Program-made: the position numbers and the translations under genes | Notes under the pieces: generated by a model | Databases searched by the model: none | What the model was told of the DNA's origin: nothing | The model's input: the letters and a program-made list of their open reading frames with translations, nothing else | Virus genome (UHGV): UHGV-0021337 | Source: a virus | Reading direction: 5' to 3' (one strand) | DNA: 64,000 bases | Shown: piece by piece, positions 6,333 to 58,341 of the stretch | Layout of the letters: each line of letters opens with the position of its first letter | Position numbering within the stretch: position 1 is the first letter of the stretch

Positions 6333-6351
6333 TCTTTAAACTAACTAAATC

Positions 6352-6383: not shown

Positions 6384-6402
6384 GGTTATTTCTTGTATTC
6401 TT

Positions 6403-6421
6403 AGTATAATTCTTGTATAAT
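6403..6421 (+). promoter_or_regulatory. tandem extended -10 elements (TAGTATAAT / TTGTATAAT)
   Basis: Two TGnTATAAT-like hexamers lie between the capsid terminator and the 6459 gene. Confidence 0.4.
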
Positions 6422-6458
6422 AACTAACCACGACCTCTAAATTGAAGGAGAATATAAA

Positions 6459-6734: not shown

Positions 6735-6819
6735 ATAATTCATAAAACTTTAGTTACATTCAACTAAATTATTTATATCAAGTGTGGTAAAGAGTCTTTA
6801 TGACTTTTACATAGCGCTT

Positions 6820-6850
6820 AAGAGACTAGTCACACCTCCGCTAGTCTCTT
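6820..6850 (+). promoter_or_regulatory. perfect 10-bp stem-loop (AAGAGACTAG / CTAGTCTCTT) whose 11-nt loop carries CACCTCC, identical to the anti-Shine-Dalgarno core of 16S rRNA. It lies in the 5' leader of the 6872 gene.
   Basis: Read directly from the sequence. No T-run follows, so it is not a classical terminator. Confidence 0.4.
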
Positions 6851-6871
6851 GAGTTGCAGATTAAGGAACTT

Positions 6872-9379: not shown

Positions 9380-11590
9380 ATGAGTAAGTTATATGAAGAT
9401 AACAGAGCTCAGTTGATGGCGGCGAGCCGTTCAGCTCAAAAAGAGAACGACGGAAAAACACGCTATCAAAAAAGACTAAACTCTAGTATAGCGAGTTCTA
9501 ATCGAGAGTACAACCAAATCGACATGAACTCGTTATTCAAGAATAATATTTTAACTGTTAATATTCCCGTCAGAGGAGAAACGGATAACTATATTGTTAC
9601 TTTTTCCTTTGGCGGATTTTTAGATAAACTACACGACGAGCTTGAGCGTAATAACGAACAACTTCAACTAAGAGTTGTTATAAGAGCTGTTGTTGATTGT
9701 TTCAATTCAGACAATGTTTACATACGATGTAATTGTTTACATCCTGATACAGAAATCTTGCTTCTAGACGGGACCAAGGCTCGTGTCGAAGACTTGTGTA
9801 CTCGTTTTAACAGTGGTGAGCAGTTATTTGTCTACTCTACTGACGATAAAGGAGATTTTAAGCCAGGCGTTGTTCGCAATGTTTGGAAATCGGGAAGCTC
9901 TTCTGAGCTTGTCAAAGTTACTCTTGATAGCGGAGACATCATTCAGACAACTCCAGACCATAGATTTATGCTGCGTGATGGCTCATATATTGCCGCCAAA
10001 GACCTAAAAGAACATCAGTCACTGATGCCAATGTATTTTTCAGACTACAACGGTTACCAAACTGTTAAATTTAATAGTACTGGAAAATATCACTCAGTGT
10101 ATAAACAAGTTGCATCAGAGTTACTGGCTGATAAAATTACTGCTGCAGAGATTCGTGAAGCATCAGCCGATAAACACGGACCTTACAAAGTAGCAATTCA
10201 TCATAAAGATTTTAATAAGCGTAACAACACTCCAACTAATCTAGAGCCGCTTACTTGGGAAGAACACTGGATGTATCATGCGTCCTTAGGGTTCAATTCA
10301 TTCCCTAAAGAGACGCAAGATAAGATTAGAACTAGAGCTTCAGAATGGATGCAATGGTTAAACGCACATCCAACTGAAAAGATGTTAGAGCTAAGAAAAG
10401 AATACTGCGAGCGCGGTCGTTTAATGAATTACTTACCTGAACGGCAAGAACAGCAACGACACGTGATGAGTAAAGCAATAACAACGTACTGGCAAACGAT
10501 GTCAGACGAAGAGCGTGAGCGTCAGTCAAAAGCTAGGTCCGAGCGTTCTAAAGCTGCTGCGGAACGGGGATGTCTTAAAACCGAGAAGTTTCACACAGCT
10601 GCACTTAAACGGGGTAAAGATATGCACACAACTGAGCGCGAAAAGCTAATTGTAGCAGGTGTACGTAGATATTGGAACTCTCTTAAGGGTGAAGCTCGAG
10701 AGGCACGTGTTGCTATCTGTAGGAAAAATATTCAGAAATCTATCGACGCACGTCGAGGAACTCCTCTTACGCAAGAACACAAGGATAAAATACGTGCTAG
10801 TCGAGAACGTGAAACTCCTGAACAGCTTGCAGTTCGCGTGCAAAAATGTAACGAAACTAAAATACTTACTGTACTAAATTATCTGATAGATAACAAGCTA
10901 GAATTGACTTTGGACAACTACAACCAAATCAAAAAACGCGAATTCAACTCGTATCCCTCGATTGATAAACGATTTGAATCTATTGATGATGCTGTTAGCT
11001 ATTTCCAACTTAATCACAAAGTTGCAAAAGTTGAGTTCGTGCATCTAACTGACCCCATTGACGTTTATGATATAGATGTTGATACGTGGCACAACTTTAC
11101 AACAGCTGCAGGGGTTGTTCTGCATAATTGCGAGGACTTCCACTATCGTTTTTCCTATTGGGCCACAAAAACTGACATAATAACAGGTCCTAAGGAAAAT
11201 ATACCTTCGGATATAACAAACCCGAGCAACACCTTGGGCAAAGGCTGTAAGCATATAATGCTCTGTCTTTCTAATACCAGATGGTGTATAAAAGTAGCCG
11301 CTGTAATTAAAAACTACATTGAGTACATGGAAAGACATTTACAGTCAATGTATGCAAAAGTTATCTATCCTGCAATTTATAAACGCGATTATGAAGAGCC
11401 TATACAACAGTCAATGTTTGATACAGATGAATTAGAAACTAGTAGCGAAGTAATTGACACTGCAAGTAAAGAGGCTCGCAAGAAAGGTCAATTCCAAACT
11501 GGCAATCCGTATAGATTTACTAAACAACCAGATAAAGACCAAATATCCATTGACGACATCGAAGTTGAGGACGAGGTAAGTGAAGAATGA
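9380..11590 (+). CDS. intein-containing virion-module protein. The spliced extein would be about 271 aa of unknown function.
   Basis: RBS GGAGGA. There is an in-frame insertion bounded by canonical intein motifs (next feature). Confidence 0.6.
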   Translation: MSKLYEDNRAQLMAASRSAQKENDGKTRYQKRLNSSIASSNREYNQIDMNSLFKNNILTVNIPVRGETDNYIVTFSFGGFLDKLHDELERNNEQLQLRVVIRAVVDCFNSDNVYIRCNCLHPDTEILLLDGTKARVEDLCTRFNSGEQLFVYSTDDKGDFKPGVVRNVWKSGSSSELVKVTLDSGDIIQTTPDHRFMLRDGSYIAAKDLKEHQSLMPMYFSDYNGYQTVKFNSTGKYHSVYKQVASELLADKITAAEIREASADKHGPYKVAIHHKDFNKRNNTPTNLEPLTWEEHWMYHASLGFNSFPKETQDKIRTRASEWMQWLNAHPTEKMLELRKEYCERGRLMNYLPERQEQQRHVMSKAITTYWQTMSDEERERQSKARSERSKAAAERGCLKTEKFHTAALKRGKDMHTTEREKLIVAGVRRYWNSLKGEAREARVAICRKNIQKSIDARRGTPLTQEHKDKIRASRERETPEQLAVRVQKCNETKILTVLNYLIDNKLELTLDNYNQIKKREFNSYPSIDKRFESIDDAVSYFQLNHKVAKVEFVHLTDPIDVYDIDVDTWHNFTTAAGVVLHNCEDFHYRFSYWATKTDIITGPKENIPSDITNPSNTLGKGCKHIMLCLSNTRWCIKVAAVIKNYIEYMERHLQSMYAKVIYPAIYKRDYEEPIQQSMFDTDELETSSEVIDTASKEARKKGQFQTGNPYRFTKQPDKDQISIDDIEVEDEVSEE
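9734..11128 (+). mobile_element. intein (465 aa) with HNH endonuclease and NUMOD3-like repeats
   Basis: N-terminal block A is CLHPDTEILLLDG, starting with Cys at 9734. The C-terminal block G is VYDIDVDTWHNFTTAAGVVLHN, followed by Cys+1 (CEDF) at 11129. The internal HNH motif is AIHHKDFNKRNNTPTNLEPLTWEEHWMYH. Several repeats of the H-x-E-x-K-x-K-I/R type (for example TQEHKDKIRASRE) are NUMOD3-like. Confidence 0.75.
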
Positions 11591-12078
11591 AAGATATAGG
11601 TATTCTTTACAACGAACAAAATCTTAAACTACAAAGAATTTACTTTAACCAGATGCTTCGTATGATTGGTATAAAAGTACTTCATTACGCTCCTTTACCG
11701 GGTAAAAGATACACAACATATGCAGAAATAAAAACAGCCTTCGAGGAACCAGTTGTTACTGGATGCGTATTTGAAGAACATCCTACTCAAAAAACAATGA
11801 AGAAGTTAGGCTGGGATTCTGAAAGACAAGAAGATGCTTCTTTGATAAGTGTGCCTTATGACTTAGCTCATGTTCAAGCAGGCTCTCTATTTGCTTTACC
11901 AAGCGGTATTGATAATTCAGAAGCGAGACTATTTAGAGTTGTAGAGATGAGCACTATAATGCTATATCCTGCATCGATAACGTGTAAACTAGTTCCAGAA
12001 TGGGCAAATACAGCTCGAGAATCACAGATTGTTAATTTTAAGACACAAGATTTTAACTTGTTAAGAGAGGAAGAATGA
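11587..12078 (+). CDS. hypothetical head/neck protein
   Basis: ORF in the operon, overlapping the stop of the previous gene. Confidence 0.45.
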   Translation: MKDIGILYNEQNLKLQRIYFNQMLRMIGIKVLHYAPLPGKRYTTYAEIKTAFEEPVVTGCVFEEHPTQKTMKKLGWDSERQEDASLISVPYDLAHVQAGSLFALPSGIDNSEARLFRVVEMSTIMLYPASITCKLVPEWANTARESQIVNFKTQDFNLLREEE

Positions 12079-12833
12079 TTCTAGTAGAAAAGAATTTATT
12101 GTCTGCAAAAGAGACTGATGAACTCTTAACAAAACGTGGCTCAGATAAAACTAAATATCTTGCCTCGAAAGCAAAAGAAAAGTTTGGAAATGATCCCGAC
12201 TATGACGTTTATTCAGACGTTTTAGTCGATAGCTTAGAACAGTATGGTACCGACACAGCACAAAACAAATTTTTACAATACATTGTTACTAAGAGTGCTA
12301 CCCCATTCAATATGCAAAAAAGTCAGCCCTACTTGATTTATAACATTCTAAACAACGCTGAGGCAAATGTTACGACAGGAGCGGCTGCAAAAAGTTCTTG
12401 GTTATATAATCCTAACGCATATAATGGTAGTGATTTTAAGTTGAAAGCTTTAGCGTTTTTGTCTAGTAAAGATGCTGAAAATTATGGTGACCTAAAAACT
12501 AAACCAACGCAGAAAATACTCAATACTACTGATGATAGTGAGATTGAGACATTGCTTAGTAATTGGCAGACTAAAGATGGTGAGTCAAACTCCCGAGTCA
12601 CATATCGCAGAGCTTCTTCAAAAAATTCAGGAACAAATTATTTTAGTAAAGATTCTAAAAAAGTTGCTGCAGACAAAGCTCAAAAACTCAATCTTATAAA
12701 AGACACATATTCTTCGAGCTCTGCAGATATTGCGTCTGCAATTGATAAAGTATATAGACCAGGCATCACAGATGCAGACCTACTTACTGGTGTATCGAGG
12801 ATTTTAGGACAGAATGCTCTTGCTACTAAGTAA
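12075..12833 (+). CDS. hypothetical head/neck protein
   Basis: ORF with an ATGA overlap. Confidence 0.45.
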   Translation: MILVEKNLLSAKETDELLTKRGSDKTKYLASKAKEKFGNDPDYDVYSDVLVDSLEQYGTDTAQNKFLQYIVTKSATPFNMQKSQPYLIYNILNNAEANVTTGAAAKSSWLYNPNAYNGSDFKLKALAFLSSKDAENYGDLKTKPTQKILNTTDDSEIETLLSNWQTKDGESNSRVTYRRASSKNSGTNYFSKDSKKVAADKAQKLNLIKDTYSSSSADIASAIDKVYRPGITDADLLTGVSRILGQNALATK

Positions 12834-45897: not shown

Positions 45898-48396
45898 ATG
45901 GCAGGATCATTGTGGGGCGAGAGTTTCGAGATTCCTGAAACTCCAAAAGTTGTTAAAAAAGTACTTGAGAAAGTAAATCATCCGAAAGATACAAAAGTTT
46001 CAGTTACAAAGACTATTAAATCTAACAAAGTTTCCGACAGAGATAAGTTGGTTTTAATTCGTGAAAATGTCAACAGAATTTTAGGCAAGTATGGTGATGA
46101 TACTCAGTTAATAAAAACAAGAGAAGAGTTAACAAAGTACATTGACTTTGCAATAAATTGTAGTGAGATAGCAATCGATACAGAAACAGATAATAGTTTG
46201 GACCCGATAACGTGTAAGTTAATGGGTGCGTGTATCTATTCTCCTGGACTTAAAAATGTTTATATTCCTGTAAATCACGTAGATATAAATACTCGTGAAC
46301 GATTTGATTGGCAGCTTACAGAGGCAGATATCAAAGAAGAATTTGACCGTTTAACAGCTGCCAAAACAAAAGTCATAACGCACCATGGAAAGTTCGATTA
46401 TGAAGTTCTAAAAATGACTACAGGTTATGTAATGTCTGTTTATTGGGATACTCTTGTTGGTGAAAAAATACTTGATGAAAACAAGCATGAATACGGCTTG
46501 AAACATCTTTATAGAGATAAATTTGACCCCGAACAAGAAAAGTATGACATAGAAGAATTGTTTGAAGGTGTCGAGTATGCAATAGTGGAGCCTGAGTTGT
46601 TTGCGTTATATGCAGCAACAGATGCTTACATGACTTACAAGTTATATAAATGGCAATTAGAACAATTTGACATTCCTGACCATAGCAGAATTAAGAATTT
46701 ATTTCTTAGCATTGAAATGCCTGTCTTACAAGTTTCCGCAGAAATGGAACTTGCAGGTATATGCTTAGATCAAGAATATGCAAAGAGGTTAAGTGCTAAG
46801 TACGCAAAGAAGCTTGAAGATATTGACGAAAAAACAGAAACGGAAGTTGCTAAATACGAAGACATCATATCTCAGTGGCGATTAACTACAGACGCAAACG
46901 AACATCCTATCAAGAACGGTAAGATGCAGAGGTCAAAAAGTGAACAATTAAAGTTTCCTGTAAACCTTGATAGTCCAACACAGCTCGCTATCTTATTGTA
47001 TGATGTTCTTAAATGTGGTGTTGTAAATAAGAAAAAGCCCAGAGGAACTGGAGAAGAAGAACTTACAGCTATTTATGCAAAGTACAAGATAGAACTTTGT
47101 AACATAATACTAGAGAGAAGAGGTCTTCTTAAGTTGATTACAACATATATAGATAAACTTCCACAGTGTGTAAATCCAGCAGACGGAAAACTCCACGCTA
47201 AGTTTAATCAGCTCGGCGCGGGCACAGGCAGGTTTAGTTCTAGTGACCCAAATCTTCAAAACATTCCGTCTCACGAAAAATCAATAAGAATGTTATTCGA
47301 AGCAAGTCCAGGGTGTTGCCTTTGTGGTGCGGATTTCTCGGCCCAAGAACCTCGTCTTTTAACACAGTTCAGCCAGGATTCTAAGATGCTTAACGCATAC
47401 AAAGAAGGAAAAGACTTGTATGCAATAATAGCTCAACAAGCCTTTCATAATGGATACTGGGATAACATGGAGCATTACGAAGATGGTTCTCCTAATCCAG
47501 AAGGCAAGAAAAGACGTGGTATCGCAAAAACTTTGCTCTTAGGAATAATGTACGGAAGAGGTTGTGCATCTATTGCAGACCAAATAGGGTGTAGTATTCC
47601 CGAAGCTCAAAAAATCATTGATACATTCTTCGAAAGTTTTCCTAAAGTAAGGGATTGGGTGACTAAAACAGAACAAGATGCTAAAAAACTAGGTTATGTT
47701 GAAGACTATTGGGGACGTAGAAGACGACTTCCTGATATTATGAAGCCTAAGTATACAATAACTGCTAAGGGTGAAGACACATCTATTTCAAAAGATTTCA
47801 ACCCGTTGTTAGGTGCATTAGGTCTCGTTAAAAATACACAGGGCACATTGACTGAAAAATGGCAGAATGCATTGTCAAAAATGAAAGGTCGTAAAGAGTA
47901 CGAGCAGATAAAATTGAACGCTGCAAAAGAAGGTGTGACGATAATCGATAATGGTGCATTTATAGCACAAGCAGAAAGGCAGTGTGTAAATGCACGTATT
48001 CAAGGTTCTGCTGCAACGTTAACTAAACTAGCAATGATTGAAGTATTCCACGATGAAGAACTTAGAACTCTTGGATTTAAACTTTTACTTGCAGTTCACG
48101 ACGAGTTGATTGGAGAATGCCCGATTGAAAACGTGAAAAAAGCAGCTGAACGTTTGTCTTATGTTATGGTTAATGCTGGAGTTAAGAATAACGTCGATAC
48201 ACCTATGAAGTGTGATGCAGAAATAGAGGACCATTGGTATTTCAACGAATATAAAACATTGATTAGGAAGGAATACGCAAAATATATTAGTGCAGGAGAT
48301 AGCAAAGAAGTTGCGTGGAGCAAACTTTGTGAGGAGCATTGTGAATCAACTCCTGAGCAGTTAAAAATAATTCTTGAAAGCGAGGAGGTAGCGTGA
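45898..48396 (+). CDS. DNA polymerase, family A with 3'-5' exonuclease domain
   Basis: Exo I is AIDTETDN. Motif A is ADFSAQEPRLL, motif B is RRGIAKTLLLGIMYG, motif C is VHDELIGE. Confidence 0.9.
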   Translation: MAGSLWGESFEIPETPKVVKKVLEKVNHPKDTKVSVTKTIKSNKVSDRDKLVLIRENVNRILGKYGDDTQLIKTREELTKYIDFAINCSEIAIDTETDNSLDPITCKLMGACIYSPGLKNVYIPVNHVDINTRERFDWQLTEADIKEEFDRLTAAKTKVITHHGKFDYEVLKMTTGYVMSVYWDTLVGEKILDENKHEYGLKHLYRDKFDPEQEKYDIEELFEGVEYAIVEPELFALYAATDAYMTYKLYKWQLEQFDIPDHSRIKNLFLSIEMPVLQVSAEMELAGICLDQEYAKRLSAKYAKKLEDIDEKTETEVAKYEDIISQWRLTTDANEHPIKNGKMQRSKSEQLKFPVNLDSPTQLAILLYDVLKCGVVNKKKPRGTGEEELTAIYAKYKIELCNIILERRGLLKLITTYIDKLPQCVNPADGKLHAKFNQLGAGTGRFSSSDPNLQNIPSHEKSIRMLFEASPGCCLCGADFSAQEPRLLTQFSQDSKMLNAYKEGKDLYAIIAQQAFHNGYWDNMEHYEDGSPNPEGKKRRGIAKTLLLGIMYGRGCASIADQIGCSIPEAQKIIDTFFESFPKVRDWVTKTEQDAKKLGYVEDYWGRRRRLPDIMKPKYTITAKGEDTSISKDFNPLLGALGLVKNTQGTLTEKWQNALSKMKGRKEYEQIKLNAAKEGVTIIDNGAFIAQAERQCVNARIQGSAATLTKLAMIEVFHDEELRTLGFKLLLAVHDELIGECPIENVKKAAERLSYVMVNAGVKNNVDTPMKCDAEIEDHWYFNEYKTLIRKEYAKYISAGDSKEVAWSKLCEEHCESTPEQLKIILESEEVA

Positions 48397-48659
48397 CTTT
48401 TACATTAGATGGCGTAGAGGCAATAGGACTAGTAGCTACAGTCATTCTTGTTGCTTCTATGTGTTTCAATACTAAAACTTTTATCGGAACATTACTTATG
48501 CGAGTTTTGAATCTTGTATGTAGTGTTGTGTGGATTATATATGCCTGTGCTCATACGCCAGGACTTTTATCAACTTTGGTTTCAAACATTTTGTTAACAA
48601 TTATCAATTTGTATTTTCTTATCATTGCCGTAAAAAATAAAGATAACTTTGGTAAGTAA
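48393..48659 (+). CDS. small 3-TM membrane protein (GTG start, overlaps the polymerase stop)
   Basis: Three hydrophobic helices, loosely SemiSWEET/holin-like in size. Confidence 0.4.
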   Translation: MTFTLDGVEAIGLVATVILVASMCFNTKTFIGTLLMRVLNLVCSVVWIIYACAHTPGLLSTLVSNILLTIINLYFLIIAVKNKDNFGK

Positions 48660-48683
48660 ACAAAATAGTTTGTATACATATAT

Positions 48684-48743
48684 AGAGGGATGTTCAGTTG
48701 TCTACTCCCGCCCTCTTAAAAATAAATTAAAACGGAGACTATT
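48684..48743 (+). promoter_or_regulatory. candidate preQ1-I-like riboswitch / structured leader upstream of the YhhQ-family transporter
   Basis: AGAGGG-(21-nt loop AUGUUCAGUUGUCUACUCCCG)-CCCUCU is followed by the A-rich tail UAAAAAUAAAUUAAAACGGAG. For comparison, the B. subtilis preQ1-I aptamer is AGAGG-UUCUAGCUACA-CCCUCU-AUAAAAAACUAAGGA. The loop CUCC can pair with the SD GGAG. The loop is longer than the consensus. Confidence 0.3.
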
Positions 48744-49463
48744 ATGAAGAAATTATTAAACGAATACAAAATTTTATTACGAAATGTACCTAGTCTAATT
48801 GTTGGCTTGTTTATTGTTGCAGTTGTTAGCTGTAATATACTTGCAAATAAAACAATTGTAAGTGTTGGAGATTGGTTCGCACTAGATGGAGGAATTGTTG
48901 TTAGTTGGCTTATATTCTTGTGTATGGATATGGTAACTAAACGATTCGGACCAAAAGCAGCAACGCGTTTAACTTTAGTTGCAGCAGGTGTTAATTTACT
49001 TGTGTGTGGTTTATTCTACATTGTTAGCGTTATACCTTCTTCAGCTGATGACTATACAGCACTAAATGGAATTTTAGGCGGTACTTGGTTTATTCTGATG
49101 GATAGTACAATAGCATTTATTGTCTCAGGAATAATCAACAATTTTGTAAACGCTGGTATAGGTAAAGCGTTCAGGAAAAATCCAGACGGAAAACTTGCAT
49201 ATGTTTCAAGAACTTATGTATCTACGTTTATTGGACAATTTATTGACAACTTAATTTTTGCAGTTTTAACCTTTATGGTATTCAGCCCTATTTTCTGGGA
49301 CGGATTTAGTTGGACATTCTTACAGTGTGTAACGTGTTCTTTAACAGGAGCAATTGCTGAATTATTGATGGAAATCATCTTCTCGCCTCTTGGATATAAA
49401 ATTTGCAATAAATGGAAAGCAGAAGGCGTTGGCAATGAATATCTTGAATTGGTAAAAGCCTAG
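48744..49463 (+). CDS. yhhQ: YhhQ/COG1738-family queuosine-precursor (preQ0/preQ1) transporter
   Basis: About 6 TM helices. LDGGIVVSWLIFLCMDMVTKRFGPKAATR aligns with E. coli YhhQ TWGAFSFPFIFLATDLTVRIFGAPLARR. FIDNLIFAVL aligns with NVSDTLAFF. Confidence 0.7.
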   Translation: MKKLLNEYKILLRNVPSLIVGLFIVAVVSCNILANKTIVSVGDWFALDGGIVVSWLIFLCMDMVTKRFGPKAATRLTLVAAGVNLLVCGLFYIVSVIPSSADDYTALNGILGGTWFILMDSTIAFIVSGIINNFVNAGIGKAFRKNPDGKLAYVSRTYVSTFIGQFIDNLIFAVLTFMVFSPIFWDGFSWTFLQCVTCSLTGAIAELLMEIIFSPLGYKICNKWKAEGVGNEYLELVKA

Positions 49464-49474
49464 TTCATACAGAG

Positions 49475-49511
49475 ACGACACGAAATACGGCATCGTGTCG
49501 TTTTCTTTTTG
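49475..49511 (+). terminator. rho-independent terminator after the transporter
   Basis: ACGACACG-aaatacggcat-CGTGTCGT followed by TTTTCTTTTTG. Confidence 0.75.
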
Positions 49512-49640
49512 ATTTATTCTTTGATTACCTTTATAATAAATGTATAAGTTAGGAGAAAGCTAACTTGAACATTGAAGAAATTAAAAAATCTAATCAAACA
49601 ACCTGAAAAGGTGAATTTATGAGTAGAGTTGGAGGTAGAT

Positions 49641-49901
49641 ATGAACTGGAAAAAAGAATTTATCAAATTATTAGAATCGAGAGCCTTTGCGACTAATTCA
49701 GAAATCGATGATTACGCTGACGAACACAATTTGCCAGTAGCCGACGTTTGGCAGTGTTTCTCGGAATATATGGAAGATTGTTTAATTAAACAGTCAATCG
49801 GAACACCTTGCGAAGGTTGCAAATACGTTGTTCAAACAAAAGGCTCGATACCTTGTTATGAGTGTTGTCGAAATAAGGCTGATTTTTACAAAAAGATATA
49901 A
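49641..49901 (+). CDS. small Cys-rich (zinc-ribbon) protein, start revised to ATG 49641
   Basis: RBS GGAGG. PCEGCK...PCYECC. Confidence 0.45.
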   Translation: MNWKKEFIKLLESRAFATNSEIDDYADEHNLPVADVWQCFSEYMEDCLIKQSIGTPCEGCKYVVQTKGSIPCYECCRNKADFYKKI

Positions 49902-49930
49902 CAGAAGACACGTTTCATTAGGGGGTAATT

Positions 49931-50092
49931 ATGCGTAAAGAACACGACGGGAAGATTTACTTCCCACATTATGAAGAAATTTTGCTCGAGGATGCTTTGA
50001 CCGCGATGGTTAAAATTATGCAGGAAACTGGACATTTGTATTACGTTGAATGGAACGGAAAGTTCTATTACAGCGACGAGGTAAAAATATGA
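49931..50092 (+). CDS. small hypothetical protein (53 aa, not in the ORF track)
   Basis: RBS GGGGG 6 nt upstream of the ATG. ATGA-coupled to the next gene. Confidence 0.35.
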   Translation: MRKEHDGKIYFPHYEEILLEDALTAMVKIMQETGHLYYVEWNGKFYYSDEVKI

Positions 50093-50292
50093 GATTCAAC
50101 GGACAAAATATGATATACACTGCAGACGACGAATTTCCCAACTGTAGCGTGTGTGAAAAACAAGACTTCTGTTATTTATGCATGGAGTGCGGTCCAAGCT
50201 TTGCGTGGCAACACTACGAAAGATCTGAAGACAATGCTGAGCTGAATCGTCTGTACAAGGAGCTTGAGAGGTACAAGAAACAATATGATTAA
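50089..50292 (+). CDS. small zinc-finger protein (start revised to ATG 50089)
   Basis: CSVCEKQDFCYLCMEC. Confidence 0.4.
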   Translation: MRFNGQNMIYTADDEFPNCSVCEKQDFCYLCMECGPSFAWQHYERSEDNAELNRLYKELERYKKQYD

Positions 50293-50470
50293 ATACTACA
50301 CCGAGCGTGAGCTTGATTACAACGAAATTGAAACTCCATCCTCATATCCAAAAGAAGTAGTCCTAGACAAAATCAAAAATCTAGATAAACGAGATATAAA
50401 GTTTAAGCCTGTACTCGATCCTCAGTGTGTTATAACTACAACTTGGACTATAAGTAATGACGATAACTAA
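50285..50470 (+). CDS. small hypothetical protein
   Basis: Coupled ORF. Confidence 0.35.
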   Translation: MIKYYTERELDYNEIETPSSYPKEVVLDKIKNLDKRDIKFKPVLDPQCVITTTWTISNDDN

Positions 50471-50522
50471 TTGATTGTTTATATAAATTATATTATAATA
50501 AGCATATAAGAGAGGTGTATAT

Positions 50523-50747
50523 ATGAATAACGAGAAACACGAAGTAACAAAAGAAGAAGTTGGAGAACAGATCTGGGAACTTTTCAAAGGTGACTCTAAA
50601 AAACATAGAACGCATAACTATGAAAAAACATATGATGGAATTAGTCAATGTTTCACGTTACGTAATAGTAAACGATATTTAATAACACAGAATTCAAAAG
50701 ATAACAACGATATAAAAGTCGAAAGATATATAAAAAATCATCACTAA
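50523..50747 (+). CDS. small hypothetical protein
   Basis: RBS AGAGAGG. Confidence 0.4.
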   Translation: MNNEKHEVTKEEVGEQIWELFKGDSKKHRTHNYEKTYDGISQCFTLRNSKRYLITQNSKDNNDIKVERYIKNHH

Positions 50748-50761
50748 GGTTTAAGTTAATT

Positions 50762-50965
50762 ATGAACTGTCCTAGATATATAAAAGACAAAATTCTTTTA
50801 CGAGCAAAATACGCTATGAAATTTATGAAATTAGATTGCGATATATGCAATTGGATGCAGGCTAATAATATAGATAGTGAATACTCTCTTCCCGGATATG
50901 TAGAAAGTCTGTGTGGTGGTTACAGTGCAGCTGAAGAAACACTTCAAGACATTGAAAATTCATAA
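50762..50965 (+). CDS. small Cys-containing hypothetical protein
   Basis: ORF. Confidence 0.4.
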   Translation: MNCPRYIKDKILLRAKYAMKFMKLDCDICNWMQANNIDSEYSLPGYVESLCGGYSAAEETLQDIENS

Positions 50966-51020
50966 AATTCGTGTTAATTAGACATAAGTTATTGTATAAC
51001 AAATACAAACAGGAGGTATT

Positions 51021-51971
51021 ATGCCATATTATTTTTCTGGAGCATATAATCAGGCCTTGAAAATACGGTTAAATGTTGACCAACTATTCTCAGTGTATCA
51101 TGAGAAAAAATTGATTGAAAAAACAATCTTATATAAAAGAGAACATCCTGAATATACCGCAAAAATTTTCTTAGACAGTGGAGCTTTCACGCATTTCCAG
51201 AATATGAAGAAAAAGGGAATCACGCTTACTGACAACGACATAAAGGACTACACAGATAAATATCTTTCTTTCTTAAATGAATGGGGCGAAGACTTGGAGT
51301 GCTTTGTTGGCGTCGATAGTGTACCAAATCCAGAACACGTTGACCCAACGTTTGTTCATAAAACTTGGGCAAATTATTTGTATATGTGGGAAAGGTTAAA
51401 ACCGAGTATTCGTCATAAATTGATTCCTGTTTTCCACTTTGGGGAAGATTTCAATGAATTGAAGAAGTGGCTTGAATATAGACATCCAGATGGAAGTAAA
51501 GTTGAGTATCTTGGTCTTGCAATTTCGTTGGAAGGAAATCGAAAAGTAAGAATTGCTTGGGGACAAGAAGCCGAAAGAATAATCAAAGCATCTTCTAATC
51601 CAAATGTTAAGACTCACGCGTTTGGTGTTGGGGTTAAGAGCGTTATGGAAAATATAAACGTAACTTCGACGGATGCCACGAGTTGGTTGAAGCGTGCAGC
51701 ATATGGAATGATTTCGGTAGACGATAAGACTGTATATATAAGTGACTTGCAAGAACAGAAGTCCGACGGCAGACATCTTAAAGATAAGTCACTAGCTTAT
51801 CAAGAAGAAGTATTTAAGAAAATAAAAGAAAAAGGCTTTACGCTTGAGCAGTTAGCTACAGACAATTACGCGAGAGCGGAATTTAACATTTTGGATACGT
51901 TAGAATGGTATAATAAATTAGAAGCATCAAAACGTATCGAAAAGGGCGCAAAGGTTGATTTAGGTTGGTAA
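51021..51971 (+). CDS. dpdA: DpdA-like DNA-guanine transglycosylase (TGT superfamily, no zinc subdomain)
   Basis: IFLDSGAFTHFQ matches the TGT catalytic DSGGFQ motif. HAFGVGVKSVMEN matches LMGVGKPEDL. VTSTDATSWLKRAAYG matches FDCVMPTRNARNG. RBS AGGAGG. Confidence 0.6.
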   Translation: MPYYFSGAYNQALKIRLNVDQLFSVYHEKKLIEKTILYKREHPEYTAKIFLDSGAFTHFQNMKKKGITLTDNDIKDYTDKYLSFLNEWGEDLECFVGVDSVPNPEHVDPTFVHKTWANYLYMWERLKPSIRHKLIPVFHFGEDFNELKKWLEYRHPDGSKVEYLGLAISLEGNRKVRIAWGQEAERIIKASSNPNVKTHAFGVGVKSVMENINVTSTDATSWLKRAAYGMISVDDKTVYISDLQEQKSDGRHLKDKSLAYQEEVFKKIKEKGFTLEQLATDNYARAEFNILDTLEWYNKLEASKRIEKGAKVDLGW

Positions 51972-51982
51972 TCTCAGACGAG

Positions 51983-53869
51983 ATGAAACAAGATGTTGTT
52001 GAGTTCTATAAAACAAACTCAACAACAATTACTTGTGAACAATTTCATATAACTTGGGACAGGCTTAAAAAGATACTGGCTGAATATGATGTAGCTCCAC
52101 ACGATGCAAAAATTAATAGAGAACTGACATCGTTATACAGATTCGGAGTTACTAATGCAGGAAAATCTGTAGAGTTACAGGAAAAAGCAAAACAAACAAC
52201 AGCGTCAAGATATGGTAGTTCAAATTACAGGAATCACGACAAAGCTCGTCAGACCCGTATAAACAAAGATGGCTCATTAGAAGCATCATATAGAAAAGCT
52301 CAGAAAAGACAAGAAGAAACGAACTTGGCTAAGTATGGAGTTAAAAGTTATTTTCAAACTGAATTATTTCAAGAACAGTCTAAGGATACTTGCTTAGAAC
52401 GTTACGGCAAAGAGTTCTATCGTCAAACTCAAGAATATCAGGACCGCGTTAAAGAAACATCTTTACAAAAATATGGAGTAGAACACTATACTCAATCTGA
52501 CCAGTATAAAACAAAAGTAAGAGATACTTGCCAAGAAAGATACGGCAACGATTCGTGGTTTGGCTCGGAAGCTGGTAAGAATGCTATCAAAGACAGTTGT
52601 TTACAGAGGTATGGTGTTTCTAACGCTATGCAGTCGTATGAAGTGATAACGCGAGCAAAAGAAAAGCTTGTTCAGAAATATGGTGTTGACAACGTTATGA
52701 AATCTTCAGATATCAGAAGTAAGCAAGCACAGTCGAGTCGTTGTTCTAATTTTGAGCAAGAAGTTCAGCATTGGTTGTCAAATAGAAACGTTGCTTTTAC
52801 TACTCACTATGTTATTAAACAAGGAGGTTTGATTCACGAGTTTGATATTGCTTTATACGAAGGTAATCAGCTCGTTTGTCTAGTAGATTGTGACGGGACT
52901 TACTATCATGGATACAACGACGATATAAATGGTAGATCTGTAAACCCATACATAGATGAATATAGAATGCTGCTTGTTCCTAAAGATGTTTTATTTCTTG
53001 TGTTACTTCCAGACACTTGGCAAGAGCAGCTTGAAGAATACTTTAATAACAAACAAAGTTACGAGCAAGTCATATTCACCTGGTGTAAATCTATAGACTT
53101 TCCATATCCTAACATAGACAATGTTGAGGCTTCCTATAAGTCACTGGTAAAGGCAGATGTGAGTAAATTTTCGATGAACGCTCGATATGGAATGCGAGTT
53201 ATCGACGCTTTTCATAAATCTATCTGGAAAGCAAATAGAAAAGGTTTCTTGAGCCCTTATGCTGCTTGGCGTGATGAAGAATTGCTACGCAGATGTATCA
53301 ATAATCGTATAATTTATAAAGGTACTAACTTAGACCCTTCCAAGGTTCTATACGGTTTTAGTGCTGCAAAGATTGCTCCTAAAGTGTCGATATTTAATCC
53401 TTATCTGGCTAAGTATTTGATAAATAAGTACTTGAACGAATTTACAACTGTTTTTGACCCTTGCTCTGGATATAGCGGCAGACTTTTAGGCGCAACATCA
53501 TTGGGTAAACATTATGTAGGACAAGATATAAATGCTACAACAGTTGAAGAATGTTTACAAATACGTGATAAGCTCAATCTCGACGCTGAATTATCTGTTG
53601 TTGATTCTTTGAGTACTACAGGAAGTTATGAGGCTTTATTTACCTGTCCTCCTTATAGTGACAAAGAAAACTGGAACCAAGAAATTTTGAATCTAACATG
53701 CGATGAATGGATTACTCGATTTATAGAAAACTATAAATGTAAAAGATATTTATTCATTGTAGACAAAACAGAAAAGTATAAAGATTATATTGTTGAAGAA
53801 ATAGAGAATAAATCACATTTTAGTGAGAATATTGAATATGTTATATTGATAAATAGAGGTAATATATGA
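51983..53869 (+). CDS. tri-domain protein: eight tandem YG repeats of about 22 aa, a Vsr/DUF559-like PD-(D/E)xK nuclease domain, and a C-terminal MTase-like domain
   Basis: Repeats are of the type ..(K/R)YG(V)...(Q)..(E/D)....K.. T (KYGVKSYFQTE..., ERYGKEFYRQTQ..., QKYGVEHYTQSD..., and so on). The middle domain is HEFDIALYEGNQLVCLVDCDGTYYHG (D...(V/I)DCDG..H, Vsr/I-Bth0305I-like). The C-terminal domain has FDPCSGYSGRLLGA (motif I) followed by LFTCPPYSD (motif IV-like). The start codon is uncertain (TTG 51965 or ATG 51983/51992). Confidence 0.5.
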   Translation: MKQDVVEFYKTNSTTITCEQFHITWDRLKKILAEYDVAPHDAKINRELTSLYRFGVTNAGKSVELQEKAKQTTASRYGSSNYRNHDKARQTRINKDGSLEASYRKAQKRQEETNLAKYGVKSYFQTELFQEQSKDTCLERYGKEFYRQTQEYQDRVKETSLQKYGVEHYTQSDQYKTKVRDTCQERYGNDSWFGSEAGKNAIKDSCLQRYGVSNAMQSYEVITRAKEKLVQKYGVDNVMKSSDIRSKQAQSSRCSNFEQEVQHWLSNRNVAFTTHYVIKQGGLIHEFDIALYEGNQLVCLVDCDGTYYHGYNDDINGRSVNPYIDEYRMLLVPKDVLFLVLLPDTWQEQLEEYFNNKQSYEQVIFTWCKSIDFPYPNIDNVEASYKSLVKADVSKFSMNARYGMRVIDAFHKSIWKANRKGFLSPYAAWRDEELLRRCINNRIIYKGTNLDPSKVLYGFSAAKIAPKVSIFNPYLAKYLINKYLNEFTTVFDPCSGYSGRLLGATSLGKHYVGQDINATTVEECLQIRDKLNLDAELSVVDSLSTTGSYEALFTCPPYSDKENWNQEILNLTCDEWITRFIENYKCKRYLFIVDKTEKYKDYIVEEIENKSHFSENIEYVILINRGNI

Positions 53870-54162
53870 AAAGTTATTATCATTATTATGATGTATGTTT
53901 TACAAAAGATGCTGCTGTTTTTGATAGAGAATTTACAACTGATGACTGTGAAGTAATTGAAGGTTTAGATGATGTTACATCAAATGAATTACAACTAATC
54001 ATTAAAGTGATTGAATACGTTAGACCCGATATTGAAAGAATACGTGTATTATATAATGTATATGAACATGACGATGATGCTGAAGATGATATATGTTTAA
54101 CATGCGATAGCATATTAGATGTTGTTAGAGATAATGAAGGTAAATTTGTTTTAAATTGCTGA
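53866..54162 (+). CDS. hypothetical acidic protein (very AT-rich gene)
   Basis: ORF with ATGA coupling. Confidence 0.4.
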   Translation: MKSYYHYYDVCFTKDAAVFDREFTTDDCEVIEGLDDVTSNELQLIIKVIEYVRPDIERIRVLYNVYEHDDDAEDDICLTCDSILDVVRDNEGKFVLNC

Positions 54163-54235
54163 TATAATGAATTTATTACATTTTAGTTGATAAATATTTG
54201 TTTTTATGTTACAATAAAATAAAAAGAGGTTTATT

Positions 54236-54637
54236 ATGTTAACTAAAAATAATTGGCAAAACGCTTTTGATATGTTAAATGATTATGCTAATATTGATGA
54301 TAGATTTTACGGTGGTGTATGTTCTTATAAATTTTTAAGTTTTGAAGGTGTTAAAAAGTTAGTTGAAAATAAGTATTTAAATTTAACTGAGAGACAAAAC
54401 TATTCACCTATGGTTAAAAATTGGATTAAATTTATAGAGACTAATAATTTACAAGACAAAATATTTTTTCATGGTTATATTGTAGAGAAAGGTAGATTTG
54501 ATAGACGTATTTCTATAGAAGGTATACAAGCTAACGCCAATATTAAATTTTCAGAGGATGAATTAAAATCCATTGTAGATTTTTGTTATGGCGCAGATAC
54601 ACTTAGAATCTCTCCATTATATGTTTGGTGGGATTAA
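54236..54637 (+). CDS. hypothetical protein (very AT-rich gene)
   Basis: RBS AAGAGG. Confidence 0.4.
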   Translation: MLTKNNWQNAFDMLNDYANIDDRFYGGVCSYKFLSFEGVKKLVENKYLNLTERQNYSPMVKNWIKFIETNNLQDKIFFHGYIVEKGRFDRRISIEGIQANANIKFSEDELKSIVDFCYGADTLRISPLYVWWD

Positions 54638-54728
54638 ATTAAACTATAATCATTATGTCTAATAACGATTGTAATGAATCTGATGACTTCTAGATAGCTG
54701 CTAAATTAAAAATATAGGAGATATAGTT

Positions 54729-54896
54729 ATGCCTAAATTAAATATAAATGAAGGTTTTGATGAATTATATAATCATAAGTGTGCAGATGTTTTACGTGCT
54801 GAATTAGATGGAAATTATGATGATAATGTGCATGAAGATAATTTATTACAAGATGTTTTATTTCATTTTGAAAACAGAGTAGATAAAAATAAATAA
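54729..54896 (+). CDS. small hypothetical protein (55 aa, not in the ORF track)
   Basis: RBS AGGAGA 7 nt upstream of the ATG. Confidence 0.35.
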   Translation: MPKLNINEGFDELYNHKCADVLRAELDGNYDDNVHEDNLLQDVLFHFENRVDKNK

Positions 54897-54917
54897 AACT
54901 TCGATGTTGTGTTATAA
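54895..54917 (+). promoter_or_regulatory. extended -10 promoter TGTGTTATAAT
   Basis: TGnTATAAT at 54907-54917. Confidence 0.4.
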
Positions 54918-54979
54918 TATAAGAAAGTAAGAAAATAAACTGAGAGTAAATATTTTGGAGACTTAAATAGGAGCAATTT

Positions 54980-55129
54980 ATGAGATATAGTAATTTTCAC
55001 CGTCATTCCATGTACAGCAATTTGCCCGCCGGGATTATAATGATTTGTTTAGGGATGTGTGAGCTCTTTCAAGGGCTATCATCGGAAGTACGCAAAAGAA
55101 CAATAAGTCAGTATCACGTATTTAGTTGA
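54980..55129 (+). CDS. small ORF (49 aa) in a locally GC-richer segment
   Basis: RBS AGGAG 7 nt upstream. The composition (CCCGCCGGG...) differs from the flanks. It could be non-coding instead. Confidence 0.25.
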   Translation: MRYSNFHRHSMYSNLPAGIIMICLGMCELFQGLSSEVRKRTISQYHVFS

Positions 55130-55181
55130 TTCTTCCTCGATAATCCCTTATAATAAATGTAATAAATAAGAGGTAGATAGT

Positions 55182-55505
55182 ATGAAATTTTCAGATATGG
55201 ATGCAAGACAACAAAAAGCTTTTCGCAACATTAAATACGCAGCAGATGATTTGTTAGGTGGTTTAGAAAACACGTTACTCGATTATGATGAACAAGATCA
55301 AGAATATATCGACGCCGAAAAATTACTCTCGAATCACTCCGAACTTGTTAATCAACTTTATAAGAAGGCTACTACAGAACTTTACGGGCCAGGTTTTTGT
55401 GGTTTTGGAAAAGAGGCTCAGATGATTATTCGGGATATAAATTTCTGCGGCAAAGTGTGGTTGATGGAACGTTGTGAAAAACGAATAACAAAAGAAGGCT
55501 ATTGA
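55182..55505 (+). CDS. hypothetical protein
   Basis: RBS AGAGGTAG. Confidence 0.4.
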   Translation: MKFSDMDARQQKAFRNIKYAADDLLGGLENTLLDYDEQDQEYIDAEKLLSNHSELVNQLYKKATTELYGPGFCGFGKEAQMIIRDINFCGKVWLMERCEKRITKEGY

Positions 55506-55550
55506 TTGTAGCATAAACATTGTATAACATAAACATAACAGGAGGTATAA

Positions 55551-56273
55551 ATGGCAACAGCATTAGTTACAGGAACAAGCTCGGGAGTGGGTAAAGCAAC
55601 AGCTCTTAAACTTCTAGCTATGGGAATAGATGTTATAGGTCTTGATTGGAAAGATAGTACAATTCATAGACCTCATTATTTTCACTTCAAATGTGATGTA
55701 AGCAAGTATGAAGAACTTCCTTCGCTTGACAGTTTAGGAGGCATTGAGTACATTGTTAACAATGCAGGAATAGTAACACCTAAAGCAGACGCTATCGCAG
55801 TTAATCAGATTGGATATATAAATGTATTGCAAAAATATGCGGATAACAATCCGAAGTTAAAAAGCATTGTAATTATTGGTTCATCTGCCTCGGTCAAGGG
55901 CTACGACAATCGAGAATATTGCACTTCGCAAGGTGCAAGAGATGCATTAACCAAGTGGGCCGCTAACAACTATGGTAACGACCCTAGACACGTTTTAGTC
56001 AACGAACTTCGTCTCGATGGTATTGTAGCAGCAGACCCGGAAAAGGGTATTGAAGGTACTACTTTGGAACCTGAGCTTTATGCAGCAGATGGATTGATGG
56101 ACCAAATAGCTAATCTGAGCATTTTAAAAAGGTTGGCTACTGTCGAAGAGATTGCAGAATGGATTTATTTTATTCTTGTAGTTAACACAATTGTAACTGG
56201 GCAGATAATAGATGTTGACGGAGAACTCATGGGAGCTTTCAAATTTGTTCCTTACAAAGGGTGGAATGACTAG
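55551..56273 (+). CDS. short-chain dehydrogenase/reductase (SDR) family protein
   Basis: N-terminal Rossmann motif ALVTGTSSGVGKA (TGxxxGxG). NNAG motif VNNAGI. The catalytic YxxxK is non-canonical (YCTSQ). Confidence 0.7.
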   Translation: MATALVTGTSSGVGKATALKLLAMGIDVIGLDWKDSTIHRPHYFHFKCDVSKYEELPSLDSLGGIEYIVNNAGIVTPKADAIAVNQIGYINVLQKYADNNPKLKSIVIIGSSASVKGYDNREYCTSQGARDALTKWAANNYGNDPRHVLVNELRLDGIVAADPEKGIEGTTLEPELYAADGLMDQIANLSILKRLATVEEIAEWIYFILVVNTIVTGQIIDVDGELMGAFKFVPYKGWND

Positions 56274-56274
56274 T

Positions 56275-57156
56275 ATGAAGATAATGTGCTTAACACCTTG
56301 TCTGATGTTAGATAATACCAGAGCAATAAACGCTAAGTCAATACAAAATAACATAGATGTTCTTAAACTCGATGAATATGTAATCTATGACCAGATGTTT
56401 GCACCTAGCGATTTTAACTCGAAATGTACATATATAGGTCACGCAGATAAACGAATGGGCTGGGCAGTACCAAGAAATGCTTTACTTAAGTATTTTTATG
56501 ATTCTGACTTTGACTATGCGTTTTTTATTGATGCAAATTCTGTTCCGTCTAAACCTACGCTAAATGATTTACTGAGCATAATAAGAAGTCTTAGAGCAGG
56601 TGAGTTATCTTTCTGCGACGCTATTTTTAGCACATTAGGTATGTGGGTAAGTCAAGAGCGTATAATGTGCAAATCCTTACCTGACCACCTCGAAAATGTT
56701 CATCTAGTACCCGCTCGTTGTGATAAAAGTTACAACTGGATGCACGGATTATTTGTAAAGAATTTCAAGAAGTATTATGGCCAGGAATTCTATATGGATG
56801 AAAGATGTCATGTATTAGAAGGAACTCCAGAAGATGTATTCTTTGCTCGTCTATTAAGGAAGTATGCAAATTGTTGGGTTGCTCCTACAGTGGTAATCAA
56901 CAAACCTTCTTCTAATGCTTCTTGTACAATGGCAAATGGTAAAGGTACTTATGATTATCCGCCTGTATTGTTTGATAAAGAAGATGAATACATTTCTGAA
57001 CTCTCTCAGAAAAACGGATATCATCACTGTAATAGAAGTGTACGACCTAGCGAAGTTGTTATACCTCGCGTTTCGGAGTATAAAGATTTAGTTACTCCGT
57101 ATAAATCAAGACAAAAGAAAGTACAAGAAACTTCAAGAAAACAAGTACTTTTTTAA
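56275..57156 (+). CDS. family-2-like (GT-A fold) glycosyltransferase (start revised to ATG 56275)
   Basis: GWAVPRNALLKYFYDSDFDYAFFIDANSVP fits the GT2 pattern (G.A.ARN.G......DYI.FLDADD). RBS AAAGGGTGG. The gene overlaps the SDR stop. Confidence 0.45.
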   Translation: MKIMCLTPCLMLDNTRAINAKSIQNNIDVLKLDEYVIYDQMFAPSDFNSKCTYIGHADKRMGWAVPRNALLKYFYDSDFDYAFFIDANSVPSKPTLNDLLSIIRSLRAGELSFCDAIFSTLGMWVSQERIMCKSLPDHLENVHLVPARCDKSYNWMHGLFVKNFKKYYGQEFYMDERCHVLEGTPEDVFFARLLRKYANCWVAPTVVINKPSSNASCTMANGKGTYDYPPVLFDKEDEYISELSQKNGYHHCNRSVRPSEVVIPRVSEYKDLVTPYKSRQKKVQETSRKQVLF

Positions 57157-57186
57157 CATATTCTTTAGTAATCACGAAAATGCTTT

Positions 57187-57196
57187 TGTATATAAT
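57187..57196 (+). promoter_or_regulatory. extended -10 promoter TGTATATAAT
   Basis: The same motif recurs at 27526, 35455 and 6414. Confidence 0.4.
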
Positions 57197-57219
57197 TTCA
57201 AATGGAGGACAATTGAATA

Positions 57220-58341
57220 ATGATTATTAGAACTGAAAAATTACAGCCTGCTTGTAGTAAGTTACTTCCTGCAGTAGACTCAACCGCTATTGCAGAAATA
57301 ACCGATGTACTCGAGTTAAAAACTGTATGTAAGATGCTCTATATAAATGTTACGAATAGAGAGTATTTTGCACAAGTTAAAATTGAACTTGACGATGTTG
57401 TTGATTTCCACGCAACTGTTAGTGCAAACCTGTTTTTAAGACTTGTTGCTCAGATTACGACCGAAACCGTTGAGCTCAACATTTCAGACACAACTTTGAA
57501 AATGAAAGGTAATGGGTCTTATGACATTCCGTTGATATTTGACAACGACAAGTTGATGGACCTTCCAGCAATCGAAATCAAAAATCCGACTGCAGAACTC
57601 TCTGTAGACAGTGACATTCTTCAAAGCATCATGAACTACAACTCTAAAGAACTTATGAAGGATTTGATTCTTCAACCTGTTCAGAAAATGTATTACATTG
57701 ACCAAGAAGGTTGTATTACATTCACGACTGGAGCGTGTGTAAATAACTTCCATCTTGACCAGCCGATAAAAGTACTTCTTAATCAGCGTCTTGTTAAACT
57801 TTTCAAGTTGTTTAACAATGGCAAAGTTAAAGTAACTCTCGGTCATGATCCGTTATCAGAAACGATAATTCAGACAAAGATTAGATTTGAATCAGATATG
57901 GTTTGTTTAACTGCAATACTTTCGTGTGATGACGATATGGTCAATAGAGTTCCGGCAGTAGCTATCAGAGGAAGAGCTAATAAAAAATATCCGTACAATA
58001 TTACTATTAGTAAAGCTGAATTGAATGAAACGATAAACAGACTTCTTCTTTTCTCGAGCACAAGTACTCTTAATAGAATTAAAGCAGATAGTAAATTTGT
58101 ATTTGAAAATTCTTGTGTTAGAGTTTACGACGTTACTCAAGCAAATGTAGAAAAAGTTTACTATAAAACTGGTGTACTTCCCGAAGGTGAACAGTATGTA
58201 GCAACGTTTGACTTAAACGATTTAAAACACGCACTAGATAGCAGCGATGATGACTTCGTTACATTTGGTTTCGGAGACCACGCAGCTCTTGTAATTATTT
58301 CTAAATCAGTTAGACACGTTGTTCCGGAAGTAGCTGCTTAA
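57220..58341 (+). CDS. hypothetical protein (373 aa; weak sliding-clamp-like length and pattern)
   Basis: RBS GGAGGA. The length matches DnaN-type clamps, and there is a loose N-terminal resemblance (KLQPACSKLLPAVDS...). No firm motif. Confidence 0.3.
   Translation: MIIRTEKLQPACSKLLPAVDSTAIAEITDVLELKTVCKMLYINVTNREYFAQVKIELDDVVDFHATVSANLFLRLVAQITTETVELNISDTTLKMKGNGSYDIPLIFDNDKLMDLPAIEIKNPTAELSVDSDILQSIMNYNSKELMKDLILQPVQKMYYIDQEGCITFTTGACVNNFHLDQPIKVLLNQRLVKLFKLFNNGKVKVTLGHDPLSETIIQTKIRFESDMVCLTAILSCDDDMVNRVPAVAIRGRANKKYPYNITISKAELNETINRLLLFSSTSTLNRIKADSKFVFENSCVRVYDVTQANVEKVYYKTGVLPEGEQYVATFDLNDLKHALDSSDDDFVTFGFGDHAALVIISKSVRHVVPEVAA

Follow-up and report, generated by a model that had tools for sequence, protein, structure and literature searches.

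A 64,000-nucleotide (nt) stretch of viral DNA (UHGV virus genome UHGV-0021337; the whole stretch is referred to here as the window) encodes, directly after the DNA guanine transglycosylase gene dpdA, a protein (51983–53869, + strand) that joins a repeat array, a nuclease and a methyltransferase in one chain. With a probability of roughly 0.72, this gene is a free-standing intergenic homing endonuclease of the Vsr-like (EDxHD/DUF559) type that carries a DNA methyltransferase fused at its C-terminus and has been inserted after dpdA. The observations that carry this reading are the folds of the two enzymatic parts, their catalytic and S-adenosylmethionine (SAM)-binding motifs, purifying selection, a variable genomic location, an empty site in a near-identical phage, gradients of identity in the flanks, and recombination between copies of the family. 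A fusion of a homing endonuclease and a methyltransferase is, to our knowledge, undescribed: the searchable literature returned no description of one, and queries combining Vsr with methyltransferase gave only Dcm/Vsr-type work.

The site occupied by the gene is known in both its filled and its empty state. Among the loci compared (designated L001 onwards), L142, a 128.9-kb contig and the sole close DpdA relative found in an IMG/VR scan, is 96–98% identical to the carrier L005 on both sides of the site and lacks the gene, leaving an indel of ∼1.9 kb between the two alleles. In L142, the dpdA TAA is followed by 17 nt, a terminator hairpin (AGAGTCGGCTATTTTAGTTGACTCTTTT), a TATAAT-type promoter and a 107-aa (amino acid) open reading frame (ORF); L005 and the window each have the gene at precisely this place, after the dpdA TAA and ahead of the terminator hairpin. 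When L005 is aligned with L142, mismatches per 100 nt number 23, 17, 9 and 11 across the 400 nt of dpdA by the junction and 0–3 in the background, and the right flank of the junction is flat in the same profile; between the window and L005, identity climbs towards the gene, from 70% through 85% to 93–97%. Such divergence of a flank and such gradients of identity are as expected of co-conversion during homing, and the 3′ ∼400 nt of dpdA are the probable co-conversion tract, judged from these alignments, and probably hold or adjoin the homing target. The pair displays a precise intergenic presence/absence polymorphism with apparently co-converted flanks, the pattern of a free-standing homing endonuclease. 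In the window, the right edge of the inserted material is marked by a diverged counterpart of the terminator hairpin and TATAAT promoter (55115–55181, + strand), with a promoter-like site at 55126–55154 within this segment. A separate observation concerns L005, where a 105-aa ORF adjoining the element (11977–12337) is flanked by a duplicated promoter-like segment (TATAATATAAGTAT) and is absent from L142; it looks like a second, independent moron-type insertion.

The landing site also accounts for the proximity of the gene to dpdA (51021–51971, + strand; phrog_887, E 2.5e-38), which a preliminary description of this DNA had read as translational coupling. The ORF begins at an ATG (51983) 11 nt past the dpdA TAA, or at an alternative TTG (51965) that would overlap dpdA by 7 nt (TTGGTAA); L005/P0001, the closest relative, has ACG in place of the ATG, and there TTG is the first in-frame start past the upstream stop and the sole one that keeps the N-terminal part. 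Coupling is plausible from these start codons, yet the link is positional: the short gap or overlap arises because the gene was inserted upstream of the dpdA terminator, and the coupling mirrors that landing place. From either start the frame is unbroken (628 aa from the ATG, 634 aa from the TTG; full extent 51965–53869, + strand, stop codon 53867–53869), and the architecture recurs in the family. The three-domain protein first described is real and intact, and each of its domain calls is backed by profiles and fold searches.

At the N-terminus, a presumed HTH-like (helix–turn–helix) segment (aa 1–47; 51983–52123, + strand) is suggested by relatives, in whose precomputed domain lists HTH Pfam hits (PF13384, PF13518, PF04545) precede DUF7487. 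It leads into a DUF7487 array (52100–52732, + strand; Pfam E 5.5e-45), presumed to be a DNA-binding or targeting module, in which (K/R)(Y/F)G cores recur at aa 53, 76, 117, 140, 163, 186, 209 and 232. Eight copies in a homing-endonuclease-like array had been recognised from the start; their period is 23 aa rather than about 22, the core holds Y or F rather than an invariant Y, and one 41-aa gap separates copies 2 and 3. Two PHROG ‘homing endonuclease’ families match the array (1.5e-19 and 2.8e-17), and literature searches for DUF7487 gave nothing relevant.

The array is followed by a Vsr/EDxHD-like PD-(D/E)xK nuclease domain (aa 251–350; 52733–53032, + strand), assigned from its fold and its motif pattern. 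The catalytic domain has a Vsr-like restriction-endonuclease fold, and I-Bth0305I scores at least as well as Vsr against it. Residues conserved across 43 divergent nuclease domains comprise E258, D288, D/E302, D304, G305, H309, D314, D325 and R328, of which E258, D288, D304, H309 and D314/D325 make up an EDxHD composite active-site motif; the residue pattern and spacing agree with the E-D-x-H-D signature defined for I-Bth0305I (PMC3239194). A correspondence to I-Bth0305I residues D196, N208, H213 and D222 is suggested by spacing, not superposition. A phmmer search of the protein against all PDB sequences gave no match at E≤10, and sequence homology to characterised EDxHD members was not found, the PHROG matches and that to the E. 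coli phage PC3 endonuclease discussed below running mainly through the repeats. The proposal of a Vsr/I-Bth0305I-like nuclease is borne out by fold and active-site residues, without a sequence match to PDB entries.

Between nuclease and methyltransferase lies a fourth conserved module, a helical domain (aa 351–470; 53033–53392, + strand) marked by the motifs WCR..FPYP, NR.IY and APKVS.FNP.LAKY, which invariably accompanies the methyltransferase in family members and resembles the motif X region of N6_N4 methyltransferases; the alignment of PF01555 in relatives covers this region together with motif I. The C-terminal part (53393–53866, + strand) is identified as a class I Rossmann methyltransferase domain by fold search, motifs and weak PADLOC hits. 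An AlphaFold2 model of aa 245–628, built with 62 homologues in the alignment, reached a mean confidence (pLDDT) of 87.9 and a predicted template modelling (TM) score of 0.86, and its C-terminal ∼170 residues matched class I Rossmann methyltransferases when searched with Foldseek against the PDB, the nearest being (D/N/S)PP(Y/F) enzymes, with Trm11 best of all (E 2e-8) ahead of METTL5, PH1948, METTL16, TGS1 and RsmD. SAM-binding motifs I–III accompany the fold, with motif I (FDPCSGYSGR, aa 491–500) at 53453–53482, motif II (YVGQD) at 53513–53533 and motif IV (FTCPPY, aa 553–558) at 53639–53656, all on the + strand. Folds and motifs point to a Vsr-like nuclease in the middle of the protein and to a methyltransferase with SAM-binding motifs at its end, in keeping with both original assignments.

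By sequence, the methyltransferase is weakly detected: N6_N4_Mtase (PF01555) scores 13.6 bits against a cut-off of 26.7, a Trm11-like model at E 0.016 is the only, sub-threshold, NCBIfam signal, PADLOC Type II methyltransferase models match at ∼1e-5, and phrog_12517 matches at 4.5e-15; some nuclease-less relatives score 27–31 bits with PF01555. DPxSGxSGR (motif I), G.D (motif II) and TC(P/S)PY (motif IV) are near-invariant with or without the nuclease. The CPPY motif first remarked upon does provide the PPY platform, although motif IV is not the canonical (D/N/S)PP(Y/F/W), Cys standing in place of D/N/S; TC(P/S/T)PY prevails family-wide and TSPPY occurs in one member only (L045). The Cys looks, from the alignment, like an isosteric replacement of the Ser in the SPPY motifs of N4-cytosine (N4C) enzymes. 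On the strength of the model, the helical and Rossmann module is probably a DNA methyltransferase related to N4C and N6-adenine (N6A) enzymes, the fold being observed and the chemistry inferred.

A large family shares this design. A word-indexed search found 791 relatives of the window protein, with the full-length architecture kept down to ∼31% identity, and a full profile scan returned 24,848 representatives (clusters at 50% identity) at E≤1e-3, of which 1,920 reached E≤1e-30, the weaker hits including other DUF7487 or methyltransferase proteins, as the profile contained the repeat region. Ratios of non-synonymous to synonymous substitution (dN/dS) between the window protein and its closest relative are 0.09 for the repeats, 0.25 for the nuclease, 0.14 for the helical domain and 0.19 for the methyltransferase, and all four parts are under purifying selection. 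Architectures mapped with hidden Markov models over 78 IMG/VR loci are mostly fused nuclease–helical–methyltransferase proteins, and this core also occurs with NUMOD3, HTH or zinc-finger N-termini, or with none. Other arrangements include helical–methyltransferase proteins alone (L042, L072); nuclease-less DUF7487–helical–methyltransferase proteins; endonucleases of DUF7487 plus nuclease only (phage PC3, L091, L100); and, in L076/77, L080 and L046/47, an ORF of DUF7487 plus nuclease followed by a separate, overlapping helical–methyltransferase ORF. Because the same two modules occur both fused and split, a functional link between nuclease and methyltransferase is indicated; the fusion is no accident, being of long standing, found widely and subject to purifying selection.

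Some phages hold two family members within a few kb: L001 (10680–12728) has nuclease-containing and nuclease-less DUF7487–methyltransferase copies flanking a dehydrogenase gene, and L019 has two full copies (5338–7134 and 10794–12626) ∼3.7 kb apart. None of 50,697 phage records matched the region by megablast, and tblastn gave partial, distant matches only, with the full architecture in no cultured phage; the best methyltransferase-only match is to Lak megaphages (∼38%), in which matches to the modules occur separately. Fold searches of the core model against BFVD returned Pithovirus, Satyrvirus and salmon gill poxvirus proteins that align over the whole nuclease–helical–methyltransferase core (357–397 columns, TM score ∼0.5), some of them annotated as cytosine-N4 DNA methyltransferases, which hints that the fused core may exist in giant viruses too.

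The location of the gene is variable and its presence sporadic. The dpdA context is limited to the lineage of the window (the window itself, L001 and L005–L007), and in L002–L004 the gene follows a T4-type Gp23 capsid gene. By neighbour clustering, a Gp23-type capsid gene stands in the flanks of 34 of ∼80 fetched loci, nearly always upstream; this count comes from single-linkage clustering, in which seven of nine sampled members pass the Pfam Gp23 threshold, and tblastn with one capsid protein recovers only 14 of 78 loci. Conversely, in a search anchored on the capsid gene, few of ∼35 related loci with enough downstream sequence carry the gene or its remnants, present as the fusion, as a nuclease-only ORF or as decayed methyltransferase fragments. 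An intron-borne origin was ruled out, with no Rfam hits to intron RNA around the gene in 48000–58000. Independently of the family, Gp23-type capsid genes are interrupted by inserts of ∼0.3–2.6 kb in L127, L130–L132, L134, L138–L140 and L002 (4459–7903), and mobile insertions (introns, inteins or endonucleases, for example) seem to gather at the capsid locus in general.

The 3′ end of the window copy records an exchange between such locations. Upstream of ∼53720, it is 93–97% identical to L005 and ∼63% identical to L002; from ∼53720 on, it is 82–88% identical at the nt level to L002 and unrelated to L005. The window copy is chimeric, its 3′ block (53720–54896, + strand; the final ∼45 codons together with ORFs of 98, 133 and 55 aa) having been acquired from a family copy at a capsid locus, which indicates that family copies recombine between phages and swap flanking cargo. 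The three ORFs (53866–54896) share 80–90% protein identity with the ORFs after the L002 member and gave no Pfam, PHROG or PADLOC hits. A 133/135-aa homologue (∼50% identity) also lies downstream of the gene in L003, L004 and L008, and the 133-aa ORF may travel together with the element.

Taken as a mechanism, the HTH-like segment and the eight DUF7487 repeats would bind a long DNA target, and during co-infection the Vsr-like domain would nick or cut an element-free related genome in or beside the 3′ end of dpdA. Recombinational repair would then copy the gene between the dpdA stop and the terminator, carrying donor dpdA sequence along, and the outcome of this step is shown by the comparative genomics. 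Since there is no evident promoter or terminator between dpdA and the gene, the inserted gene is probably read with dpdA, which would produce the apparent translational coupling. The most likely roles of the methyltransferase would be to mark the carrier genome, giving immunity to its own or related nucleases, or to supply anti-restriction methylation that repays the cost of the element. A more specific proposal, tentative and at present doubtful, is that the long-target array directs both enzymes and that the methyltransferase methylates the endonuclease's own site, making the carrier immune and the gene a single-gene ‘homing restriction–modification’ element.

Several points weigh against the interpretation as a homing endonuclease with a self-protecting methyltransferase. 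No member of the family has a known biochemical activity, and the proposed cleavage, its target site and the base that is methylated are inferred; the nuclease is assigned from fold and motif pattern, with no sequence-level match of the protein to 3r3p or Vsr. The Cys of motif IV may mean that catalysis or substrate differs from that of standard DNA amino-methyltransferases, and the closest solved folds are RNA methyltransferases. The L005–L142 comparison contains two isolated mismatch patches further to the left, at 700 and 1200 nt, on account of which general mosaicism is taken to contribute to the gradient, and the diverged dpdA flank of carriers could itself give target immunity, which would weaken the role of the methyltransferase in self-protection.

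Of the alternatives, a single-chain restriction–modification (RM)-like weapon, which would methylate self-DNA, degrade the unmethylated DNA of hosts or competitor phages and spread by ordinary recombination, is unlikely, for all that nuclease and methyltransferase are always linked (fused or in adjacent ORFs), catalytic residues are conserved, PADLOC Type II methyltransferases match weakly and relatives in giant viruses bear annotations as N4C or RM methyltransferases: long DNA-binding arrays, of repeats or HTH, typify endonucleases with long, rare targets, and the precise single intergenic insertion point, the one-sided gradient of flank divergence and the strong preference for one class of site, beside the capsid gene, speak for homing. 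A catalytically dead nuclease fold, retained solely as a DNA-binding or target-recognition module of the methyltransferase, would suit the existence of nuclease-less DUF7487–methyltransferase proteins and the general knowledge that many PD-(D/E)xK folds are non-catalytic, but is quite improbable given the conserved acidic and His positions of EDxHD in the 43 divergent members and the nuclease dN/dS of 0.25. More improbable still is a Dcm/Vsr-like pair in one chain, in which the motif IV Cys would make 5-methylcytosine and the Vsr-like domain would repair T:G mismatches arising from deamination; the family consensus lacks the PCQ (IV) and ENV (VI) motifs of C5-methyltransferases, both the xPPY aromatic platform and the nearest folds point to amino-methyltransferases, no C5-methyltransferase is among the top 50 fold hits, one member has TSPPY, I-Bth0305I scores at least equal to Vsr, and the signs of mobility, like the DNA-binding arrays, suit homing endonucleases.

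The two options offered in the preliminary description are both barely credible as they stood. The first, tailoring of the base inserted by DpdA (for example, dPreQ1 to mdPreQ1; nuclease and repeats would then aid access to DNA), would draw on the position directly after dpdA with probable co-translation, on a queuosine-precursor transporter homologue nearby and on the guanine-N2 methyltransferases Trm11, RsmD and TGS1 among the closest solved folds. A place for the fusion gene in the deazaguanine pathway was nevertheless rejected: DpdA exists without the fusion gene, since L142 keeps dpdA and lacks it at 96–98% identity; the family sits mainly at capsid loci, with methyltransferase motif content near-identical whatever the context; and DpdM, for which methylation of dPreQ1 is validated, is a metalloprotein of the unrelated DUF3109 family. 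The second, in which a homing endonuclease entered a methyltransferase gene in frame (considered here as a recent event in a gene resident in this phage, with an accidental fusion as the result), was right about the endonuclease and agrees with the separate occurrence of the modules (methyltransferase-only in L042 and L072; DUF7487 plus nuclease in PC3, L091 and L100; separate matches in Lak phages). A methyltransferase standing alone at the site in a homologous phage, as that origin would predict, is not what L142 holds: its empty site contains no methyltransferase gene, the indel being the whole fusion, and the fusion is conserved to ∼31% identity in hundreds of proteins and under purifying selection. 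As an ancient origin of the family, such an insertion is plausible because DUF7487–nuclease, DUF7487–methyltransferase and methyltransferase-only proteins exist separately.

The neighbourhood of dpdA offers further observations. The region is flanked by the queuosine-precursor transporter homologue (48744–49463; Vut_1/YhhQ type; TIGR00697, E 3e-12, just below cut-off) and by a short-chain dehydrogenase gene (55551–56273), both kept in the empty-site phage L142; as a resident module, they are better candidates for a deazaguanine role than the fusion gene. A 314-aa ORF (56212–57156) overlapping the end of the dehydrogenase gene is found in neither L005 nor L142 and recurs in L001 at ∼60% aa identity, a further presence/absence difference in the dpdA module. 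DNA polymerase A is intact in the window (45898–48396; 832 aa) and in three pieces in L001 (139–4920), where the ORFs that split it have HNH_3 and NUMOD3 hits and look like further homing-endonuclease insertions.

The family matters as a large, unstudied group of phage proteins in which a single mobile gene carries both a homing-type nuclease and a DNA methyltransferase, with fused, split and nuclease-less forms, and the pair of near-identical phages with filled and empty sites would make homing experiments straightforward. Its recognition corrects a tempting mis-annotation, in which a methyltransferase beside dpdA is taken for an enzyme that tailors deazaguanine; should the repeats confer specificity for long sites, programmable nickase or methyltransferase scaffolds could come from the family. 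Were the tentative homing restriction–modification proposal true, such an element could target invariant sequence beside essential genes (the capsid gene or dpdA, for instance); nuclease-less DUF7487–methyltransferase paralogues would be immunity-only alleles, shielding a phage against invasion or cutting by relatives; and the family would form a mechanistic bridge between homing endonucleases and RM systems, as well as a natural scaffold for long-site-specific DNA methyltransferases.

Homing endonucleases and RM systems are the two classic selfish nuclease elements, and their kinship is usually argued from nuclease folds. Type IIG/IIC RM enzymes (MmeI, BpuSI, DrdV) are encoded by cellular defence genes and have an adenine methyltransferase of the gamma class (NPPY) along with a target-recognition domain at the C-terminus, whereas the window family targets by N-terminal repeats, has TC(P/S)PY as motif IV and is a mobile phage gene; the window protein is not of Type IIG, as it ends with the methyltransferase core, carries TCPPY and has its DNA-binding modules at the N-terminus. 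With N6_N4_Mtase (PF01555) and Trm11/RsmD-type enzymes, it shares a Rossmann fold, a DPxSGxSGR-type motif I after a motif X-like helix and a PPY platform; it differs from PF01555 in its motif order (I…IV, not the beta-class IV…I), in the Cys for D/N/S and in falling short of the gathering score. The Seg and Mob endonucleases of phage T4 are inserted between genes next to conserved ones, propagate through double-strand-break repair that co-converts flanking markers, and occur sporadically among relatives; this pattern of site, co-conversion and sporadic presence recurs in the window family, although theirs are GIY-YIG or HNH nucleases without a methyltransferase.

The phage enzyme that methylates dPreQ1, DpdM, belongs to DUF3109, has a CxxxCxxCC motif for metal binding and does not adopt a Rossmann fold (PMC10516641); it is likewise a methyltransferase encoded near dpdA in phages, and is unrelated to the window protein, which has a Rossmann fold and no DUF3109 Pfam hit. 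I-Bth0305I (PDB 3R3P) and the phage Hef proteins (PMC3239194) show no detectable sequence match to the window protein, whose repeats are DUF7487, not NUMOD2, whose gene is free-standing, not intron-borne, and which has an extra ∼280-aa helical and methyltransferase module. Closer in sequence is the annotated, free-standing 621-aa ‘homing endonuclease’ of E. coli phage PC3 (Ackermannviridae; URX65812.1; DUF7487 plus DUF559/MTES_1575), itself an inferred annotation, which has no methyltransferase domain; its repeats and nuclease are homologous to aa 48–309 of the window protein (BLASTP E 9e-18) and, encoded directly after gp23, it shares the favoured site of the family, downstream of the major capsid gene.

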